Assembly: GCA_963765495.1 (NCBI GenBank)
Contig: CAVXWP010000001.1
Coordinates: forward strand, 640,001-704,000
Length of the DNA: 64,000 nucleotides
Direction: 5' to 3'
From: Blastocatellia bacterium
GTDB lineage: Bacteria > Acidobacteriota > Blastocatellia > UBA7656
The position numbers were made by a program, and so were the translations under genes. Positions 29,924-37,827 of this stretch are shown here, in pieces; position 1 is the stretch's first letter, and the number at the start of each line of letters is the position of its first letter. Under the pieces are notes generated by a model. It was not told where the DNA came from, made no database searches, and saw only the letters and a list, made by a program, of their open reading frames with translations.

Positions 29924-31501
29924 ATGCGAAGCTCCTTGCTCGTCTGTCTTATCCTTGTATTGACCTTCTCACCCGTCCTTGCCCAACAGCACGGACGGCA
30001 ATACTCCAAAGCGTCTACCCCTTCGACCGATGGCTCTCGGGCTCTGCCCCGCAGTTCTCCCGAGCGTCAGGGAATCTCATCATCGGCCATTCTGGCGTTT
30101 GTCGAAACCGCAGACAGAGAGATCGACGCGATGAACAGCTTTATGCTGGTGCGGCACGGGCAGGTCGTCGCGGAGGGGTGGTGGGGACCCTATGACGCGA
30201 AGACCCCGCACATCCTGTACTCATTAAGCAAGAGCTTCACCTCAACGGCCGTCGGGCTTGCAATCGCGGAAGGGAAATTAAGCCTCGATGACGAGGTGTT
30301 GAAGTTCTTCCCCGAAGATGCTCCGGCCGAGCCTTCGGCCAATCTCAAGGCTATGCGGGTGCGTGATCTGTTGCGAATGGCCACGGGAAACCAGACGGAA
30401 GCCCAGATAAGGCAGGCCGAACCGGGATCAAAGGATGAACCGTGGACGAAGAGGTTTCTGGCGCACCCGGTACCGTTCAAGCCGGGTACACACTTTCTCT
30501 ATAACTCGCCTGGCACGTATATGCTATCGGCCATCGTACAAAAGGTGACCGGCATGACGGTGCTTGACTATCTCCGTCCGAGGCTTTTTGAGCCGCTGGG
30601 CTTCGAAAATCCAACCTGGGTGACGAGCCCGCAGGGGATTTCGGCGGGCGCCTACGGTCTGTCGGTGCGCACGGAGGAAATAGCACGCTTTGGACAGTTG
30701 TACCTCCAGAAAGGCATGTGGAAGGGTCGGCAACTCATACCCGCAGCGTGGGTCGAGGAAGCGACCGCGCGGCAGACTTCGAACGGTTCTTCTCCCAAAA
30801 GCGATTGGGATCAGGGCTATGGTTACCAGTTCTGGCGCTCGCGTCACAACACTTATCGAGGCGACGGGGCATTCGGGCAGTACTGCATCGTCATTCCTGA
30901 CCTTGACGCCGTTGTGGCGATCACAAGCGGCGTGCGCGACATGCAGTCTGTGATGAACCTGGTCTGGGATATGCTTCTTCCGGCGATGAAGCCGAATCCC
31001 CTGGCGGAAGATGAGGCAGCCCGCCGGAGACTTGAGGCGAAGCTCGCAGGTTTGACGGTTCGTCTCCCTTCGGGCCAGCCCACTGTACCGCTCGCCGCGC
31101 AGGTATCACGGAAGTGGTATGAGTTTTCCGAAAACGACCGTGGCATCCAGGCGATGGCGTTCGATTTCAACTCGGGTACGCCTGCGCTCATGGTTCGCAC
31201 GTCCGAGGGGGAAACGCGGACCCTGATCGGGGTCGGGTCCTGGACGAAAAACCGTGAGGGCTTCGCAAACGGTCTCGACCGATTCCTGAGCGTGCCGACC
31301 CACCCCGAGGTCGCCGCAAGCGGGGCCTGGACGGCAGGGGATACCTTCACCGTCAAACTGGTTCTGGACGAGACGCCGTTTTATTCTATGCTGACGTTTC
31401 GATTCGACGGCGACCGGCTCCTGCTCGATGCGGAACACAATGTCGCGTTCGGCCCTACGAAACTGCCGCAACTGATCGGGCAGGCAGCCTCGATCAGGTA
31501 A
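29924..31501 (+). CDS. Beta-lactamase class C-like serine hydrolase, exported
   Basis: SLSK (SxxK), FLYNS (YxN/S), GYGYQFW, GDGAFGQ; signal peptide. Confidence 0.88.
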   Translation: MRSSLLVCLILVLTFSPVLAQQHGRQYSKASTPSTDGSRALPRSSPERQGISSSAILAFVETADREIDAMNSFMLVRHGQVVAEGWWGPYDAKTPHILYSLSKSFTSTAVGLAIAEGKLSLDDEVLKFFPEDAPAEPSANLKAMRVRDLLRMATGNQTEAQIRQAEPGSKDEPWTKRFLAHPVPFKPGTHFLYNSPGTYMLSAIVQKVTGMTVLDYLRPRLFEPLGFENPTWVTSPQGISAGAYGLSVRTEEIARFGQLYLQKGMWKGRQLIPAAWVEEATARQTSNGSSPKSDWDQGYGYQFWRSRHNTYRGDGAFGQYCIVIPDLDAVVAITSGVRDMQSVMNLVWDMLLPAMKPNPLAEDEAARRRLEAKLAGLTVRLPSGQPTVPLAAQVSRKWYEFSENDRGIQAMAFDFNSGTPALMVRTSEGETRTLIGVGSWTKNREGFANGLDRFLSVPTHPEVAASGAWTAGDTFTVKLVLDETPFYSMLTFRFDGDRLLLDAEHNVAFGPTKLPQLIGQAASIR

Positions 31502-31667
31502 AGGGTTCAACCGGCGTAACTGGGCAGGCGCGTACGCAAAGCTCGCCGGGGCCGTTTAGTTTTGATCCGCGTTCGTCCTGGCCTATTCCCATTTTCCTAT
31601 CCTAAATGTTGGGAACTGAATAGCCCCGAAGCCCGTAAGAAATTTTTGTTAAGTTTTTAAGAAGTAC

Positions 31668-31697
31668 TTGACTCTGCTCGCCGCCGAATGCTATACG
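31668..31697 (+). promoter_or_regulatory. Sigma-70 promoter of the cys leader/operon
   Basis: TTGACT-18 bp-TATACG with extended -10 TG; predicted start site a few nt upstream of ATG 31709. Confidence 0.55.
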
Positions 31698-31708
31698 TTG
31701 ATTGTCGT

Positions 31709-31825
31709 ATGGAAGACTATAGGCTTATGAACCGAATGCTTTGTGGTATCTGTTGCATCTGTTGTTGCGCGCCAAAGGCGCGCAGGCTGAAGCCTATAGT
31801 GGAGGTATGCTATCGTAAAAACTGA
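31709..31825 (+). CDS. Cysteine-rich leader peptide MEDYRLMNRMLCGICCICCCAPKARRLKPIVEVCYRKN (alternative starts 31727/31736)
   Basis: Hand translation; 6 Cys in 9 codons; lies between promoter and terminator upstream of sulfate assimilation genes. Confidence 0.8.
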   Translation: MEDYRLMNRMLCGICCICCCAPKARRLKPIVEVCYRKN

Positions 31826-31853
31826 GTAATAGACTCAGATTATAGAGTTACCC

Positions 31854-31897
31854 AAAACCCACTATTGGCTTTAGCCGATGGTGGGTTTTTCGTTTTT
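31854..31897 (+). terminator. Attenuator terminator of the cys leader
   Basis: AAAACCCACTATTGGC-TTTA-GCCGATGGTGGGTTTT stem followed by TCGTTTTT, ending about 20 nt before the cobA start. Confidence 0.85.
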
Positions 31898-31915
31898 GCG
31901 GATGTAAACGATACG

Positions 31916-32734
31916 ATGATTGGGGAAGCGAGAAAAACCGGGAAGGTGTATTTGATCGGCGCGGGGCCGGGCGATCCGAAACTGCTTACGATCAAAGCGG
32001 CCGAATCAATCGCGGCAAGCGACACGATAGTCTACGATTACCTCGTAAACCCGGAAGTCCTCGTTCACGCGCGGCAGGGCGTGGAATTGATCTACGTTGG
32101 TAAACGCGCAGGCCAGCCTTCAATCTCGCAAGCGGAAATCAACACAATACTTATCGAGCGCGCCCGGTCGGGTCAGGTTGTGGCCCGGCTCAAAGGCGGC
32201 GACCCGTTCATCTTTGGGCGCGGCGGCGAAGAGGCCGAAGCCCTTGTTGAAGCAGGGATTGAATGGGAAGTCGTGCCGGGCATATCCTCGGGCGTAGCCG
32301 CCGCCGCCTATGCCGGAATCCCTCTCACACATCGGAGGTTCGCTTCGAGCGTCGCCTTTATCACGGGGCACGACGGACGCGGCAAACAGAGACAATCGGT
32401 TGACTGGATGAGCGCCGCACGCGCCGCCGATACCCTCGTGATCTTTATGTGCGCCGAGACGATTTCAAAAATCGCTCGTTCACTTATTATCGCGGGCCGA
32501 CTGCCTTCCACACCCCTCGCCATAATCAGATGGGGAACCTGCGAGCATCAGGAAGTCTACACCGCTACGCTCGACCAGATCGCGGCTCTGGATGAAATGT
32601 CGGGCGAAGCCGGCTTCCGCCTAGAACCGCCCGCTATCGCTATTGTGGGCGATGTAGTGTCGCTCAAGGACAAGTTGCACTGGTTTGGGCGCAGGGCATT
32701 CCAGCTTGCGACCGCGCAAACAGTTCAGGTCTAA
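31916..32734 (+). CDS. cobA: Uroporphyrinogen-III C-methyltransferase (siroheme synthesis, CysG methyltransferase module)
   Basis: [44 protein letters not shown]. Confidence 0.93.
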
Positions 32735-32747
32735 ACGGAGGAAACAG

Positions 32748-33479
32748 ATGGCACAAGCTGAACAGGAACTCATATCGCTTTCCTACGAACCGGGTCGTAT
32801 AAACTGGATAGAAACGGCCGCTGCTCAACTCGAAGATGCCTCGCCCGAAGAGATAATTCGCCGGGCTTACGAAGAGTTCGACGACCGCATCACGATAGCC
32901 ACGGGCTTTGGCGCTGAGGGCATCGCTCTCATAGATATGGCCGTAAAGATCAATCCTCGCCCCGATGTTTTCTTTCTCGATACCGGCTTTCTTTTCCCCG
33001 AAACTTATGAACTTCGCCGCAGGGTCGAAGCCCGTTACGGAATCGAGATACGCGCCTTTCAAACATCGCTCACGCCGGAAATCCAGGAAGAAGTGTACGG
33101 CCCGGCGCTCTGGTCGCGTGACCCTGATCTGTGCTGCCGACTCAGAAAGATCGAGCCTCTTAAAGAAGCGCTCACCGGGCGAAGCGCCTGGTTTACCGCC
33201 ATACGCAGAGATCAAACCGCTGCCCGCCAAAACGCTCGCGCCGTGGAGTGGGATCACCGCTGGCAGCTTGTTAAGGTCAACCCGTTTGTTCGATGGACAA
33301 AGCGCGAGGTGTGGAATTACATCGTGAAAAACGACGTGCCTTATAACCCTCTGCACGACGCGGGCTACCCGAGCATAGGCTGCACTCACTGCACTCGCGC
33401 AGTCCGAGCGGGCGAAGACGAGCGGGCAGGTCGATGGTCGGGCCGGGCAAAGACCGAGTGCGGGTTGCACGCCAGCTAG
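32748..33479 (+). CDS. cysH: APS/PAPS reductase, [4Fe-4S] type
   Basis: LDTGFLFPET, CC..RK..PL, GYPSIGCTHCT, R.GRW, ECGLH; SD GGAGG. Confidence 0.93.
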   Translation: MAQAEQELISLSYEPGRINWIETAAAQLEDASPEEIIRRAYEEFDDRITIATGFGAEGIALIDMAVKINPRPDVFFLDTGFLFPETYELRRRVEARYGIEIRAFQTSLTPEIQEEVYGPALWSRDPDLCCRLRKIEPLKEALTGRSAWFTAIRRDQTAARQNARAVEWDHRWQLVKVNPFVRWTKREVWNYIVKNDVPYNPLHDAGYPSIGCTHCTRAVRAGEDERAGRWSGRAKTECGLHAS

Positions 33480-33543
33480 CCTCTGGGATTTGAGATTTGA
33501 TTTCGAAAGAAGAGATTAAACAAAGAGGAGACGAATTTGAGCG

Positions 33544-34161
33544 ATGAGTAAAAAAGGGTTGGTAATCTGGCTGACGGGACTTTCGGGCGCGGGCAAGACT
33601 ACGATTGCCGAGGCGCTTTCAAAAGGCTTTCTAAATCGCGGATTGCGAGTCGAGATTCTCGACGGCGACGAGGTGAGAGAGAACCTCAGCCGGGGGCTTG
33701 GATTTTCAAAGGAGGACCGCGACACAAACGTCCTCCGTATAGGTTTCGTCGCGCGGCTGCTGGCACGCAATGGTGTTATTGTGCTCGCCTCAGCCATTTC
33801 GCCGTATCGGCAGTCGCGCGATGATGTACGCCGCATGGTTGAAAGCGATGGCGCATCTTTTGCCGAAATCTTTGTTCGCTGCCCAATTGATGTGCTCGTA
33901 GAGCGCGATGTTAAGGGGCTGTACAGGCGGGCGCTCGCGGGCGAAGTCAAGAACTTCACCGGCATAAGCGACCCTTACGAGGAACCGCTCGCGCCCGATT
34001 GCGTGGTCGATAGCTCCGCAGAAACCGTGGACGAGAGCGTGGCAAATCTCTTTTCGCATCTCGAGCAAACGGGCCTCGTCACAGGCCAACTCGCTCAGGC
34101 GGAACTGATCGCTTCCGTTGAGCCTGTAAATCGGCAAATCACTTTTGCCGCCGAGGGGTAA
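33544..34161 (+). CDS. cysC: Adenylyl-sulfate kinase
   Basis: WLTGLSGAGKTT, LDGDEVR..L..GLGFS.EDR, RDVKGLY, FTGISDPYEEP. Confidence 0.95.
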   Translation: MSKKGLVIWLTGLSGAGKTTIAEALSKGFLNRGLRVEILDGDEVRENLSRGLGFSKEDRDTNVLRIGFVARLLARNGVIVLASAISPYRQSRDDVRRMVESDGASFAEIFVRCPIDVLVERDVKGLYRRALAGEVKNFTGISDPYEEPLAPDCVVDSSAETVDESVANLFSHLEQTGLVTGQLAQAELIASVEPVNRQITFAAEG

Positions 34162-34164
34162 GTC

Positions 34165-35775
34165 ATGAATCGCATCGAAGAGATCAAGAAACATAAGGAC
34201 GGTCTCGATGTGCTGGCCGATGTTTATCGCTATGCCGAGACTGCCAACTCTGCCATTTCGCCTGACGATGAACAGTTGTTCAAGTGGTACGGCATATACA
34301 CGCAGCGACCGGCGGCGGACGGTTTTTTCATGGTGCGCATACGCATACCGGGCGGGAACCTCTCCCCCGCCCAGTTGCGCACCATCGCCGATCTGTCGGA
34401 CGAGTATGGTCGCGGGCTTGCCGATGTCACCGTAAGGCAAAATATTCAACTCCACTGGGTGAAGATCGAAAACATCCCCGACCTGCTCAAGCGTTTGGAC
34501 AGCGTAGGGATCACCACGACCGAAGCGTGCGGCGATTGCGTTCGCAATATACTGAACTGCCCCGTGTCGGGCGTGGACGCCGACGAATTGTACGACACTA
34601 CGCGCCTGGTCGAGCAGGTAAACGAATACTTTCTGGGCAATCGCGATTTTTCGAATCTGCCCCGCAAATTCAAGATCGCCATCACCGGATGCCCGGTTCG
34701 CTGCGTCTATCCCGAGATCAACGACATAGGTCTGTTTGCCGTGCGCGACCCTGAAAGCGGAGACGCGGTCTTTCGCGCCCGCATCGGCGGAGGGCTTTCG
34801 ACCACGCCGCGATTTTCGAAAGACCTCGGCGTTCTGGTCGAGCCCGGTGAGGTGGTTGATTTATGCGGAGCCGTGGCGACGGTCTTTCGCGATGAAGGCA
34901 ATCGAGAGAATCGCAAGCGGGCGCGGCTCAAATTCCTGATCGAGAAATGGGAAATCCCGCGCTTCCGCGACGCGGTAGAAGCGCATCTGGGCCGCAGGCT
35001 TCGCCGCGCGGCTACGCCCGAGGCCGAAGCCATACAAGAGCGTGACCGCTCGCATCTCGGCATCCACCGGCAGCGCGATGCGGGGTCGTCTTACATAGGC
35101 ATCTCCATTCTCGGAGGCCGCACATCGGGGCGCGAACTGAGAAGGCTGGCCGATCTTTCCGAAGAGTATGCGAGCGGTCGCATTCGGACTACGAACACGC
35201 AAAACATAATCCTGCTCGATGTAAGGGAAGAGAATCTGCCCGCGCTTGAACGGGAACTGGACCGCGACGGGGTTGGATACAAGCCTACGTGGTCGCGCAA
35301 GGCAATCATCGCGTGCACGGGCGTGCAGTTTTGCAAACTCGCCATAGCCGAGACAAAGAACCGCGCCGCCGAATTGAATGCTCAACTCGAACAGGCGGTT
35401 GATATGGATGACTCGGTTCGCATAAGCGTCACCGGATGCCCAAATTCATGCGGACAGCACCACATCTGCGACGTAGGTCTTGAAGGCGCGCTCACGACTA
35501 TCGACGGCGTGAAGCGCGAGACGTTTCAGGTATTTCTCGGCGGTGGCGTGGGAGAGCACGAAACCTTTGGCCGCCGGATAGGCGTGCGCGTGCTTTCTGA
35601 CGAACTCTCGGAATCGCTTGCACGATTGTTCACCCGCTATAAAGAAGATAGAAACGAAGGAGAGACGTTTCAGGAATTTTGCCTACGCCATAACAACGAG
35701 GAACTGGCGCAGTTTCTGGCCCGGCCCGCTCTGGCTGCCGGTGATGCCGCGCTGCGACGGCAACAGGAGATTTAG
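34165..35775 (+). CDS. sir: Ferredoxin-dependent sulfite/nitrite reductase (siroheme-[4Fe-4S])
   Basis: FMVRIRIPGG, LPRKFKIAITGC, ACTG..FCKLA, TGCPNSCGQH; sulfite specificity inferred from operon context. Confidence 0.85.
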   Translation: MNRIEEIKKHKDGLDVLADVYRYAETANSAISPDDEQLFKWYGIYTQRPAADGFFMVRIRIPGGNLSPAQLRTIADLSDEYGRGLADVTVRQNIQLHWVKIENIPDLLKRLDSVGITTTEACGDCVRNILNCPVSGVDADELYDTTRLVEQVNEYFLGNRDFSNLPRKFKIAITGCPVRCVYPEINDIGLFAVRDPESGDAVFRARIGGGLSTTPRFSKDLGVLVEPGEVVDLCGAVATVFRDEGNRENRKRARLKFLIEKWEIPRFRDAVEAHLGRRLRRAATPEAEAIQERDRSHLGIHRQRDAGSSYIGISILGGRTSGRELRRLADLSEEYASGRIRTTNTQNIILLDVREENLPALERELDRDGVGYKPTWSRKAIIACTGVQFCKLAIAETKNRAAELNAQLEQAVDMDDSVRISVTGCPNSCGQHHICDVGLEGALTTIDGVKRETFQVFLGGGVGEHETFGRRIGVRVLSDELSESLARLFTRYKEDRNEGETFQEFCLRHNNEELAQFLARPALAAGDAALRRQQEI

Positions 35776-35943: not shown

Positions 35944-37518
35944 ATGTCTAACAGGGTAGCCATCTTCGATACCACGCTCAGAGACGGCGAGCAGTCGCCG
36001 GGTTGCAGCATGAATCTTGAAGAGAAACTGCGAATGGCTCATCAGCTTGAAGCGCTTGGGGTGGACATAATAGAAGCCGGTTTTCCAATCGCTTCGGAAG
36101 ACGATTTCGCGGCCGTGCGCCAGATCGCAGGTGAGTGCCGGAACACCCGGGTAGCCGCTCTTGCTCGCGCAACGCGTGAAGATATAACGCGAGCTTGGGA
36201 AGCGATCAGAGACGCCGCCCGCCCGCGCATCCACACGTTTCTCGCCACCTCTGATCTTCATCTCGAATATAAACTTAAGATCACCCGCCAGCAGGCGCTC
36301 GAACAAATCAGCAGCATGGTTGGGCTGGCCGCGGGCTTTACGGATGATGTGGAGTTTTCGCCCGAAGACGCTACGCGCACCGATCTCGAATTTCTTTGCG
36401 AAGCGGTTCGCGCGGCCATCCGAGCCGGGGCTACGACAATAAATATCCCGGACACCGTAGGCTACACCATCCCGCGAGAGTTCACACACATCATCAACAC
36501 TCTGCGCGAGCGCGTAGAAGAGATTGATCGGGTCACCATTTCCGTGCATTGCCACAACGATCTGGGGCTTGCGGTTGCAAATTCGCTTGCCGCTATCGAA
36601 GCGGGCGCGCGCCAGATCGAATGCACCATAAACGGCATAGGCGAGCGCGCGGGCAATGCTTCGCTTGAAGAGGCCGTGATGGCGCTCAGAGTGCGCGGCG
36701 ATCTCCTCCATTACGAAACCGGGATCAATACGGAAGAGATTCACCGCGCAAGCCAGTTGCTCTCAAACATCACGGGCATTCAGGTGCAGCCAAACAAGGC
36801 GATAGTGGGCCGCAACGCATTCGCGCACGAGGCGGGCATACATCAACACGGCGTGATACAAAACAGCCTGACCTATGAAATCATGCGGCCCGAAACGGTG
36901 GGCGCAAAACAGAGCACCCTCGTCTTGGGCAAGCACTCGGGTCGGCACGCGTTGCAGAAACGATTTGAGGAGATGGGCTATACGCTGTCGCGCCCCGACC
37001 TCGATAAGGCGTACAAGCTTTTTACAAAGCTGGCCGATCAAAAGAAAGAGATTTACGAAGAGGATCTGATAGTCATACTGCAAGACGGACTGCGCGAGAT
37101 ACCGGAGACTTTCAAACTCCGCTCCGTAGAAGCGATGGCCGGAACGTCGCCGACTTCCTGGGCCTCGGTCACGCTCGACCGCGACGGCCGACTGCTTTCG
37201 CATACGGGGAACGCGGGCGGGCCGGTGGCCGCCGTCTATTCAGTTATCGATTTTCTTACAGGTATGCGTGGGCGACTGGCTGATTACTCAGTGCATTCGG
37301 TCACACGTGGTAGCGATGCCGTGGGCGAGGTCTTCGCGCACGTGGAATTTGATGGTCGCGTATTCACAGGCCGCGCGGCCTCGACCGATGTTATAGAAGC
37401 CAGCGCCCGCGCTTATCTGCATGCTGTCAATAAAGCTGTGCACGCGCGCCGCCATCAGGCTGGTGAAGCCGGGCGCAAAGAATCACAGGCAAAAGCCTTC
37501 ACGGGAGCGGCGGATTGA
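35944..37518 (+). CDS. leuA: 2-isopropylmalate synthase
   Basis: [66 protein letters not shown], regulatory C-domain. Confidence 0.95.
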
Positions 37519-37523
37519 AGCGT

Positions 37524-37679
37524 ATGAACGAATATTCACTTCCGAAATACCACCGTTCCTTAAAGCCGGCAGGAGGGCGCCGCTCTCCTGTCGCGCTCCT
37601 CACCAGCGCGCTTCCCGTACTCGCTAAATCGCTGCTCGTAGTCGTTATTAGCATTATTGTGCTCCGCAGCAGCGGATGA
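37524..37679 (+). CDS. Ile/Leu/Val-rich leader peptide MNEYSLPKYHRSLKPAGGRRSPVALLTSALPVLAKSLLVVVISIIVLRSSG
   Basis: Hand translation; LLVVVISIIVL (10 of 11 codons branched-chain) shortly before the stop; followed by a terminator and ilvB. Confidence 0.75.
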   Translation: MNEYSLPKYHRSLKPAGGRRSPVALLTSALPVLAKSLLVVVISIIVLRSSG

Positions 37680-37703
37680 GGGCCAGCGCATACAGGATAA
37701 AGC

Positions 37704-37748
37704 GAAGGCCATCATCCAAAGCCAAAGGATGATGGCCTTCTGGTTTTT
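37704..37748 (+). terminator. Attenuator terminator of the ilvB leader
   Basis: Perfect 14-bp stem GAAGGCCATCATCC / GGATGATGGCCTTC followed by TGGTTTTT. Confidence 0.8.
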
Positions 37749-37827
37749 AGCCCGGCAGGTAAAAGCCCTGAGATAGGAACTCTGAGATTGAAACTCTGAA
37801 CGAGACAGAAGAAAAAGAGGAAAACTT

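Follow-up and report, generated by a model that had tools for sequence, protein, structure and literature searches.

What controls the sulfate assimilation genes of a Blastocatellia bacterium, a soil acidobacterium, in which a short open reading frame (ORF) with a run of cysteine codons stands just ahead of them? The stretch of DNA analysed here, called the window throughout, comprises 64,000 nucleotides (nt) of the forward strand of assembly GCA_963765495.1 (contig CAVXWP010000001.1, positions 640,001 to 704,000), and the source genome amounts to 7.3 Mb in 17 contigs. Positions 31668-31897 of the window hold a promoter-like site, the Cys-rich short ORF, three mutually exclusive helices and a U-tailed terminator, and the genes cobA, cysH, cysC and sir follow. 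The original prediction read this arrangement as a poly-Cys attenuator with terminator, antiterminator and anti-antiterminator placed before a sulfate operon, and comparison with relatives supports that description. We put at roughly 0.8 the probability that the element is a Cys-responsive, ribosome-mediated leader-peptide transcription attenuator that would sense charged tRNA-Cys, an estimate drawn from sequence comparison. Its parts are arranged as follows.

31716..31726, + strand: segment 1, 5' arm of the putative anti-antiterminator; it lies in the 5' untranslated region (UTR) and adjoins the conserved start codon
31727..31825, + strand: ORF of the leader, read from its conserved start codon: 32 codons and the stop TGA (31823-25), MNRMLCGICCICCCAPKARRLKPIVEVCYRKN
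31742..31768, + strand: putative regulatory Cys codon run TGT GGT ATC TGT TGC ATC TGT TGT TGC, with Cys at codons 6, 9, 10, 12, 13 and 14
31766..31784, + strand: GC-rich hairpin TGCGCGCC AAA GGCGCGCA, starting at the last Cys codon; predicted by RNAalifold
31785..31802, + strand: segment 2, the shared arm, which can pair with segment 1 (via 31790-31800) or with 31859-31876
31822..31838, + strand: small, weakly supported hairpin over the leader stop, CTGAG-N7-CTCAG, from the minimum free energy (MFE) fold
31843..31850, + strand: TAGAGTT box between the leader stop and the terminator, conserved columns in alignments A1 and A2, present in most family members
31859..31876, + strand: 3' arm of the antiterminator, spanning the terminator 5' arm, the loop and the first three bases of the 3' arm
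31854..31897, + strand: intrinsic terminator, made of segment 3 (31854-69), loop (31870-73), segment 4 (31874-89) and a U-rich tail to 31897

The leader had been described as a 38-codon ORF at 31709-31825, which begins MEDYRLMNRMLCGICCICCC. The ORF and its Cys run are indeed present, but the start has to be moved to the conserved codon at 31727, which gives 32 codons. Among the 28 aligned leaders, the column of 31727 holds an ATG in 27 and a GTG in one, the frame is open in all 28, and the length is exactly 32 codons in 22. The in-frame upstream ATGs at 31709 and 31688 are confined to the source genome, and in relatives a stop occurs in the 31709 frame shortly before the conserved ATG. Comparison thus establishes the leader frame, and it does the same for the Cys run: every one of the 28 leaders has 4-8 Cys codons, grouped at codons 9, 10, 12, 13 and 14, while the Cys share in the long ORFs of the source genome is about 1.0%. 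The motif CCxCC(C) is well kept and the non-Cys residues vary freely. Past the Cys run, the frame over segment 2 shifts in five leaders (L015, L022, L028, L061 and L064) with the nucleotides of segment 2 unchanged, so that the Cys run appears to be conserved as codons and the remainder as RNA. This pattern is what a leader that is probably translated would leave. The +2 frame of the leader (31741-31818, + strand) is Leu-rich in the source genome (MWYLLHLLLR...), and a Leu-leader reading of it (LLHLLLR) was rejected because that frame has early stops in relatives.

The source genome was scanned for short stop-to-stop frames with at least 4 Cys in 7 residues that are followed by a hairpin and a T-run within 160 nt. 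It contains 431 Cys-rich short frames, of which 10 pass the hairpin and T-run filter, and the hairpin of the present leader is the strongest among them. It alone of the ten is known to stand ahead of cys genes, though no inspection was made of what flanks the remaining nine, and this Cys-run scan yielded no other convincing Cys leader in the source genome.

A degenerate pattern of the leader, run against contigs taken from one genome per species, matched 38 stretches. Leaders account for 22 of these, 3 titled 'uncultured Clostridia bacterium' and 19 titled Blastocatellia, one of which (L040) is incomplete at the end of its stretch. The other 16, from Gemmatimonadales, Actinomycetes, Lysobacteraceae and others, were set aside as unrelated or chance matches: in place of a terminator they are followed by GC-rich sequence that looks like coding DNA, and the majority are part of longer frames. 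BLAST with the leader DNA found stretches of 70-78% identity in many genera of the window's family (f1), which by its named relatives is Blastocatellia, Acidobacteriota. A covariance model, R1, built from the 28 aligned leaders gave one strong match each in 33 of the 34 genomes of this family, with E values from 4.9e-36 to 1.4e-14; the remaining genome (G032, 100% complete, 350 contigs) gave no R1 match in either the strict or a laxer search. Downstream of the leader, a CobA homologue is found in 29 of the 30 best loci; in two of them a further gene intervenes, and one locus stops where its contig does. The three leaders with the Clostridia title (L031, L057 and L068) are of the Blastocatellia type, and G030, G010 and G011 from the window's family have identical peptides; the taxonomic label and the sequence disagree here.

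The folding of the leader transcript points to the same arrangement. The MFE fold of 31700-31916 has a z score of -5.75 against 200 dinucleotide shuffles and contains the helix 31716-26:31790-800 (11/11 pairs), the GC hairpin and a 16-bp hairpin at 31854-89 with a U-rich tail. Support for each helix was counted as paired cells in alignment A1 (MAFFT, 24 sequences) and compared with slid registers and with shuffles, whose counts overstate significance, as kin sequences are not independent. The U-tailed terminator previously placed at 31854-97 was recovered by the terminator scan, as a 16-bp hairpin at 31854-89 (-24.9 kcal/mol) followed by TCGTTTTT, and again by covariation, with 93.5% of cells paired in A1 as against at most 54% in slid registers, 18 compensatory cells and 0/500 shuffles reaching the count. 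The pairing of segment 2 with segment 3 had been given as 10/11 positions. This is correct for the core (31792-802 with 31859-69, where the mismatch is T:T at 31795/31866), and its extent had been set too short: the full antiterminator, 31785-31802:31859-31876, has 17/18 pairs, -30.5 kcal/mol and a z score of -7.0. In A1 it is paired in 77.9% of cells as against at most 54% in slid registers, again with 18 compensatory cells and 0/500 shuffles. Its extension into the terminator loop (74% paired as against 26-47% slid, 0/1000 partner shuffles) is the cleanest evidence for the antiterminator, because the terminator does not constrain its own loop. Over the 24 sequences the antiterminator duplex has 13-22 bp and a median of -28 kcal/mol, compared with -26 for the terminator and -17.6 for the pairing of segments 1 and 2 (hereafter 1:2; the other helices likewise), and its z score is -2.4 or lower in 21 of the 24 (mononucleotide shuffles). 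Covariation thus gives strong support to both the terminator and the antiterminator.

The GC hairpin is likewise borne out by comparison, with compensatory changes in 5 of its 7 pairs (RNAalifold, alignment A2) and, over 38 unique family rows aligned to the model, 89% paired cells and 16 compensatory cells; RNAalifold on A2 predicts this hairpin and the terminator. As had been claimed, segment 1, ACTATAGGCTT (31716-26), matches the reverse complement of AAGCCTATAGT (31790-800) exactly, with 11/11 pairs. The core of 1:2 is paired in 72.5% of A1 cells as against 57% at a slide of one, with 6 compensatory cells and a count that 3/500 shuffles reach; extended to 17 pairs, it is paired in 68% as against 58.5% slid, with 11 compensatory cells and 58/500 shuffles reaching the count. 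In the 38 unique rows all four helices exceed shuffles and 1:2 has 13 compensatory cells, in an alignment whose fitting took in three of the helices (1:2, the GC hairpin and the terminator) and left out the antiterminator. One leader, L002, has T for C at one position of segment 2, and both partner segments, 1 and 3, have A for G to match it. The original prediction had proposed looking for conservation in relatives; there the Cys run is present in 28/28 leaders and 2:3 and 3:4 covary, while 1:2 does so only moderately. A conserved spacer hairpin between segment 2 and the terminator, considered as a scaffold, was rejected (median z score -0.87, ends paired in 14/28). For the TAGAGTT box no pairing partner was found; a comparison by hand, made to see whether it might duplicate segment 1 or pair with the 5' UTR, showed partial complementarity only.

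The favoured fold depends on how much of the transcript has been made. A transcript ending at segment 2 folds into 1:2, one ending at the terminator loop into the antiterminator, and the full-length one into 1:2 plus the terminator.

Cys-run leaders are also found beyond the window's family. The R1 model gave the following matches in other families.

f9: 2/9 genomes, weaker
f8: 4/8 genomes, weaker
f7: 1/3 genomes, weaker
f10: 1/1 genome, weaker
f2: 1/4 genomes, weaker
f4: 0/38 genomes, with stricter filters
f5: 0/38 genomes, with stricter filters
f6: 0/14 genomes, with stricter filters

All nine of these non-family matches are short Cys-run ORFs followed by a hairpin and a T-run, with the terminator further downstream in L099; examples are MAMCCCC... 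in f8 and MQHIKKNQFCMCCSALVAR in f9. A laxer R1 search of 22 genomes gave five matches, of which L110 (f7) and L112 (f5) are Cys leaders, L109 and L111 are not, and L113 matches only the terminator part. When 151 genomes sampled across the phylum were searched, matches came from four genomes outside the class, and each of these is a Cys leader (for example MVSPATCCCCCCC). The diverged Cys-run leaders total 15, from 9 other families, 3 of which lie outside the class, and the genes after them belong to the Pfam families listed here.

TP_methylase: 2 leaders
PALP, a broad family, cysK-like by inference: 6 leaders
NIR_SIR: 1 leader
ATP-sulfurylase: 2 leaders
cysH-sir: 1 leader
Cons_hypoth698: 1 leader (L116)
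DUF1684: 1 leader (L112)
no Pfam family: 1 leader (L107)

Evident sulfur-pathway families thus stand directly downstream of 12 of the 15, which ties the leaders to cysteine and sulfur genes across lineages; the downstream genes of L107 and L112 give no support to this link. The antiterminator has a z score of -2.5 or lower in 11 of the 12 scorable diverged leaders. A strict T-run rule found no terminator for L104, L107 and L112, in which hairpins with interrupted T-runs are visible and the terminators are weaker or uncertain. The layout of ORF and segments also differs among families. In f8 the Cys run opens at codon 2-4 and the start codon is overlapped by segment 1, which a stalled ribosome would therefore mask directly. 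In f9 the stop codon lies at the start of segment 2, which is the classic trp layout, and the interval from the end of segment 2 to the stop is 7 nt in f8 and f41; with the stop this close, a terminating ribosome would cover segment 2 in all three families.

Two further arrangements were observed among the diverged leaders. In AT-rich relatives from f9 (L100:501-830), an AT-rich insert of about 150 nt separates segment 2 from the terminator, and segment 2 comes directly after the stop. Two genomes from a different class of the phylum (L115:1501-1710 and L118:1501-1696) have a pair of terminator-like hairpins in tandem, both with a T-run, between the Cys leader and a gene for ATP sulfurylase.

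The promoter-like site and the genes that flank the leader in the window are listed below.

31668-31673, + strand: -35-like hexamer TTGACT, from reading the sequence
31689-31697, + strand: extended -10-like TGcTATACG, from reading the sequence; an 18-nt spacer lies between TTGACT and TATACG (31692-97)
31916..35775, + strand: operon cobA-cysH-cysC-sir, by Pfam
31916-32734, + strand: cobA-like uroporphyrinogen methyltransferase (TP_methylase)
32685-33479, + strand: cysH (PAPS_reduct)
33544-34161, + strand: cysC (APS_kinase)
34165-35775, + strand: sulfite reductase, sir (NIR_SIR plus NIR_SIR_ferr)

The promoter proposed earlier, TTGACT-18-TATACG, is present where it had been placed. Of the 75-nt stretches upstream of the leader in 24 relatives, 19 have TTGAC at a similar distance, and TG-N-TATAC-like motifs are also found upstream of relatives' leaders, though a sigma-70 promoter scan called no site at the leader, because the -10 element lacks its final T. 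The promoter is thus a candidate by virtue of a conserved motif. The public runs listed for this stretch, four in number, are DNA metagenome contigs, and none is on record as RNA. From it we predict a transcript start at about 31703-31705, some 23 nt before the conserved ATG at 31727, with segment 1 as 5' UTR; the suggestion that the leader is near-leaderless does not hold. The gene order cobA-cysH-cysC-sir given earlier agrees with the Pfam families. The cobA start (31916) lies 27 nt past the end of the terminator hairpin (31889), and the leader most likely controls this operon for assimilatory sulfate reduction and siroheme. Further downstream are leuA and ilvBN.

How such a leader might work can be set out from these parts. 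Transcription would start near 31703, leaving segment 1 as the 5' UTR of a 32-codon leader that begins at 31727 and has six Cys codons at codons 6-14. When cysteine is plentiful, ribosomes would pass the Cys run, and segment 2 would be covered by a ribosome or recaptured by segment 1 behind it; segment 3 could then pair with segment 4, the terminator with its U tail would form, and transcription would stop before cobA. When cysteine is scarce, ribosomes short of charged tRNA-Cys would stall at codons 6-14, upstream of segment 2, leaving segment 2 free. On its emergence, 31859-31876 would be taken by segment 2, and the resulting 17-bp antiterminator would block the terminator and allow read-through into the operon. 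Since the favoured fold changes with transcript length, the outcome would have to be set kinetically rather than thermodynamically, as in classical attenuators. The GC hairpin may serve as a polymerase pause that synchronises ribosome and polymerase, or as an insulator. During a stall, segment 1 would have to be kept off segment 2, and, because segment 1 adjoins the start codon, we propose that this is done by a queued or initiating second ribosome at the start region, or by steric hindrance from the stalled one. The AGG in segment 1 could act as a weak Shine-Dalgarno sequence.

Several observations weigh against the attenuator or against this account of its working. Segment 1 does not contain the Cys codons, which are found in the loop that separates it from segment 2. 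The usual footprint of a ribosome extends from about -15 to +15, and a ribosome stalled at codons 6-14 would therefore end at segment 1 or a few nt downstream of it, so that masking in the classical sense would not be direct. Leaders of the window's family have about 20 nt between the end of segment 2 and the stop, so that segment 2 would not be covered by a ribosome positioned at the stop. The claim that a ribosome between segments 1 and 2 frees 2:3 thus keeps its plausibility, while simple masking fails to explain it in this family. The antiterminator is favoured once 31859-73 has emerged, whether or not a ribosome footprint is masked, and the model therefore needs 1:2 to be kinetically protected. 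That helix is, however, the least supported one and is not universal. Its duplex energy, taken sequence by sequence, has a median of -17.6 kcal/mol with a z score of -2 or lower in 11/24 and above 0 in 4/24; RNAalifold on A2 does not predict it; and in the diverged leaders it is strong in f8 and f9 only and weak or absent in those of f7, f41 and f36. The relatedness of the aligned sequences, which inflates the shuffle comparisons, belongs here as well. With regard to initiation, the -10 element without its canonical final T and the silent promoter scan amount to a weak signal, and the AGG in segment 1, only 3 nt from the ATG at 31727, has poor Shine-Dalgarno spacing. Overall, the support for 1:2 is moderate, and, given that the element is an attenuator, we regard it as an even question whether 1:2 acts as an anti-antiterminator in the manner described.

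The weakness of this helix leads to the alternative that deserves the most attention, a two-state attenuator in which the ribosome either covers segment 2 or does not, and in which 1:2 only closes the start region against further leader translation, or enforces termination when the leader is untranslated. That 1:2 has the weakest comparative support of the helices, that the leaders of f7, f41 and f36 combine a weak or absent 1:2 with strong antiterminators, that a terminating ribosome would cover segment 2 in f8, f41 and f9, and that segment 1 adjoins the start codon would all fit such a mechanism. In the window's own family, however, the stop lies about 20 nt past segment 2, and something else must then block the pairing of segment 3. 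Moreover, the triple change in L002 and the 13 compensatory cells in the 38 rows, whose alignment was fitted to 1:2, speak for selection on this helix in f1, and 1:2 is strong in f8 and f9. On this evidence we consider the two-state mechanism rather unlikely.

Two other explanations dispense with the Cys codons as a sensor. The conserved GC hairpin (31766-84) and TAGAGTT box (31843-50), which have no assigned role, might belong to a riboswitch or to the target of an RNA-binding regulator, with the ORF incidental, and the alternation of antiterminator and terminator would suit any effector. A scan of 30500-33000 against Rfam 15 (cmscan, E up to 10) gave four sub-threshold matches at chance level and no leader, T-box or riboswitch family, S-adenosylmethionine (SAM) riboswitches included, and a T-box or riboswitch reading was dropped on that ground. 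An in-frame start and a Cys run in 28/28 leaders, with stops in the other frames, would also be unexpected in a non-coding aptamer, and the diverged leaders have in common only the Cys run and the terminator/antiterminator logic; a ligand- or protein-controlled terminator switch is accordingly very improbable. The short ORF might instead be a gene with its own terminator, the product being a small Cys-rich protein that functions in its own right, such as a metal- or redox-active peptide; this would agree with the preserved length (32 residues in 22/28), CCxCC(C) motif and start codon. Yet the non-Cys residues vary, the C-terminal half changes frame in five leaders with its nucleotides kept, a conserved antiterminator over the terminator would be purposeless for a plain small gene, and other lineages have diverged Cys-run ORFs that follow the same hairpin logic ahead of different sulfur genes. 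We give this last explanation hardly any credence. The Cys-responsive attenuator is therefore retained as the explanation of the element.

A second attenuator-like element in the window may be counted in favour of the Cys attenuator. Upstream of ilvB (37828), at 37515-37760 (+ strand), a Leu/Val/Ile-rich short ORF ends AKSLLVVVISIIVLRSSG with its stop at 37677-79, and a 14-bp hairpin with a T-run follows at about 37704-37748. In the relative G007, the corresponding leader has KSLIVVIIISLILPASG and the same hairpin. By BLAST, the DNA of the ilvB leader matches 2 of 12 family genomes, a much lower degree of conservation than that of the Cys leader.

In soil, Acidobacteriota rank with the most abundant bacteria, and to our knowledge almost nothing has been established about metabolic regulation in them. 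The element would provide a sequence-recognisable marker of cysteine-controlled genes across the phylum and would add cysteine biosynthesis to the pathways under terminator-type leader-peptide attenuation. Because the positions of Cys codons and stop relative to segments 1 and 2 differ among relatives, these could serve as natural variants that link ribosome position to the termination decision, and the element could become a compact cysteine-responsive genetic switch. A broader proposal, which we put forward tentatively and hold to be doubtful at present, is that Cys-codon leader attenuators are a general control of sulfur assimilation in Acidobacteriota, with a regulon of sat, cysH, sir, cobA and cysK. 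In Blastocatellia, according to this proposal, the state of the leader would be read out through ribosome occupancy of the start site, the anti-antiterminator being the 5' UTR of the leader, so that queued or initiating ribosomes behind one stalled on the spread-out Cys run, rather than masking by the lead ribosome, would decide the outcome.

Cys-codon leaders have been reported from other bacteria. For Actinobacteria, the relevant part of Seliverstov et al. 2005 (PMC1262725) predicts Cys-run leader peptides at cys operons without conserved terminator hairpins and suggests Rho-dependent termination, in agreement with the earlier remark that actinobacterial Cys leaders lack an intrinsic-terminator arrangement. 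Runs of Cys codons before cysteine genes are thus shared, as far as that account goes, whereas the terminator and antiterminator are the best-supported parts here. The mycobacterial polycysteine leaderless small ORF Ms5788A senses cysteine via ribosome stalling and acts by translational control, according to the portions of Canestrari et al. (10.1101/834739) that describe it: base pairing joins its Cys tract to the Shine-Dalgarno region of the gene that follows, and transcription past the leader is insensitive to cysteine. In the same portions the authors state that attenuation for cysteine mediated by an upstream ORF is, to their knowledge, undescribed. As characterised there, Ms5788A resembles the present leader in being an upstream short ORF with consecutive Cys codons before cysteine-related genes; unlike it, the present leader has a U-tailed terminator with a covarying antiterminator and a predicted 5' UTR of about 23 nt, and its Cys tract shows no pairing with the cobA start region in the MFE fold.

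Closer in architecture are two predicted attenuators upstream of cysS, a tRNA synthetase gene, in other phyla. The entry for uORFC-8-2 of Rhodobacterales in Brewer et al. 2021 (PMC8632094) gives a Cys-codon attenuator with two Cys codons in the first stem and a U-run terminator, and the passage on Deinococcus deserti in de Groot et al. 2014 (PMC4007540) a 10-residue leader with two Cys. Set against these descriptions, the present leader precedes genes of cysteine biosynthesis, and it showed no relation in sequence to either of them (no match in Rfam). It is set apart from uORFC-8-2, by description and with no motif model compared, in having its Cys codons in the loop and cobA/cysH downstream. 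In the full-text literature, with subscription journals and supplements outside the scope, we found no Cys-codon attenuator of the terminator type described for genes of cysteine or of sulfate assimilation, nor any from Acidobacteria, and the original prediction had likewise known of no such attenuator on a sulfate-reduction operon in this lineage.

The nearest models remain the classical attenuators of Proteobacteria (trp, his, leu, thr, pheA and ilv), for which we follow the trp/his model as outlined in the introductory summary that 10.1101/834739 gives of it. With these the element shares a short ORF rich in end-product codons, an intrinsic terminator between this ORF and the first structural gene, an antiterminator that uses the 5' arm of the terminator, and a third, upstream segment able to sequester the 5' arm of the antiterminator. 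It differs from them in that cysteine would be sensed, in its Acidobacteriota host, in a segment 1 that is 5' UTR without regulatory codons, in an antiterminator that crosses the terminator loop into the 3' arm, and in a stop about 20 nt past segment 2. By its sequence features, the element is of the trp/his type save for the position of the regulatory codons relative to segment 1. The control principle would therefore be a classic one, and what appears new is its use for cysteine synthesis, its occurrence in a little-studied phylum and the unusual placement of segment 1.

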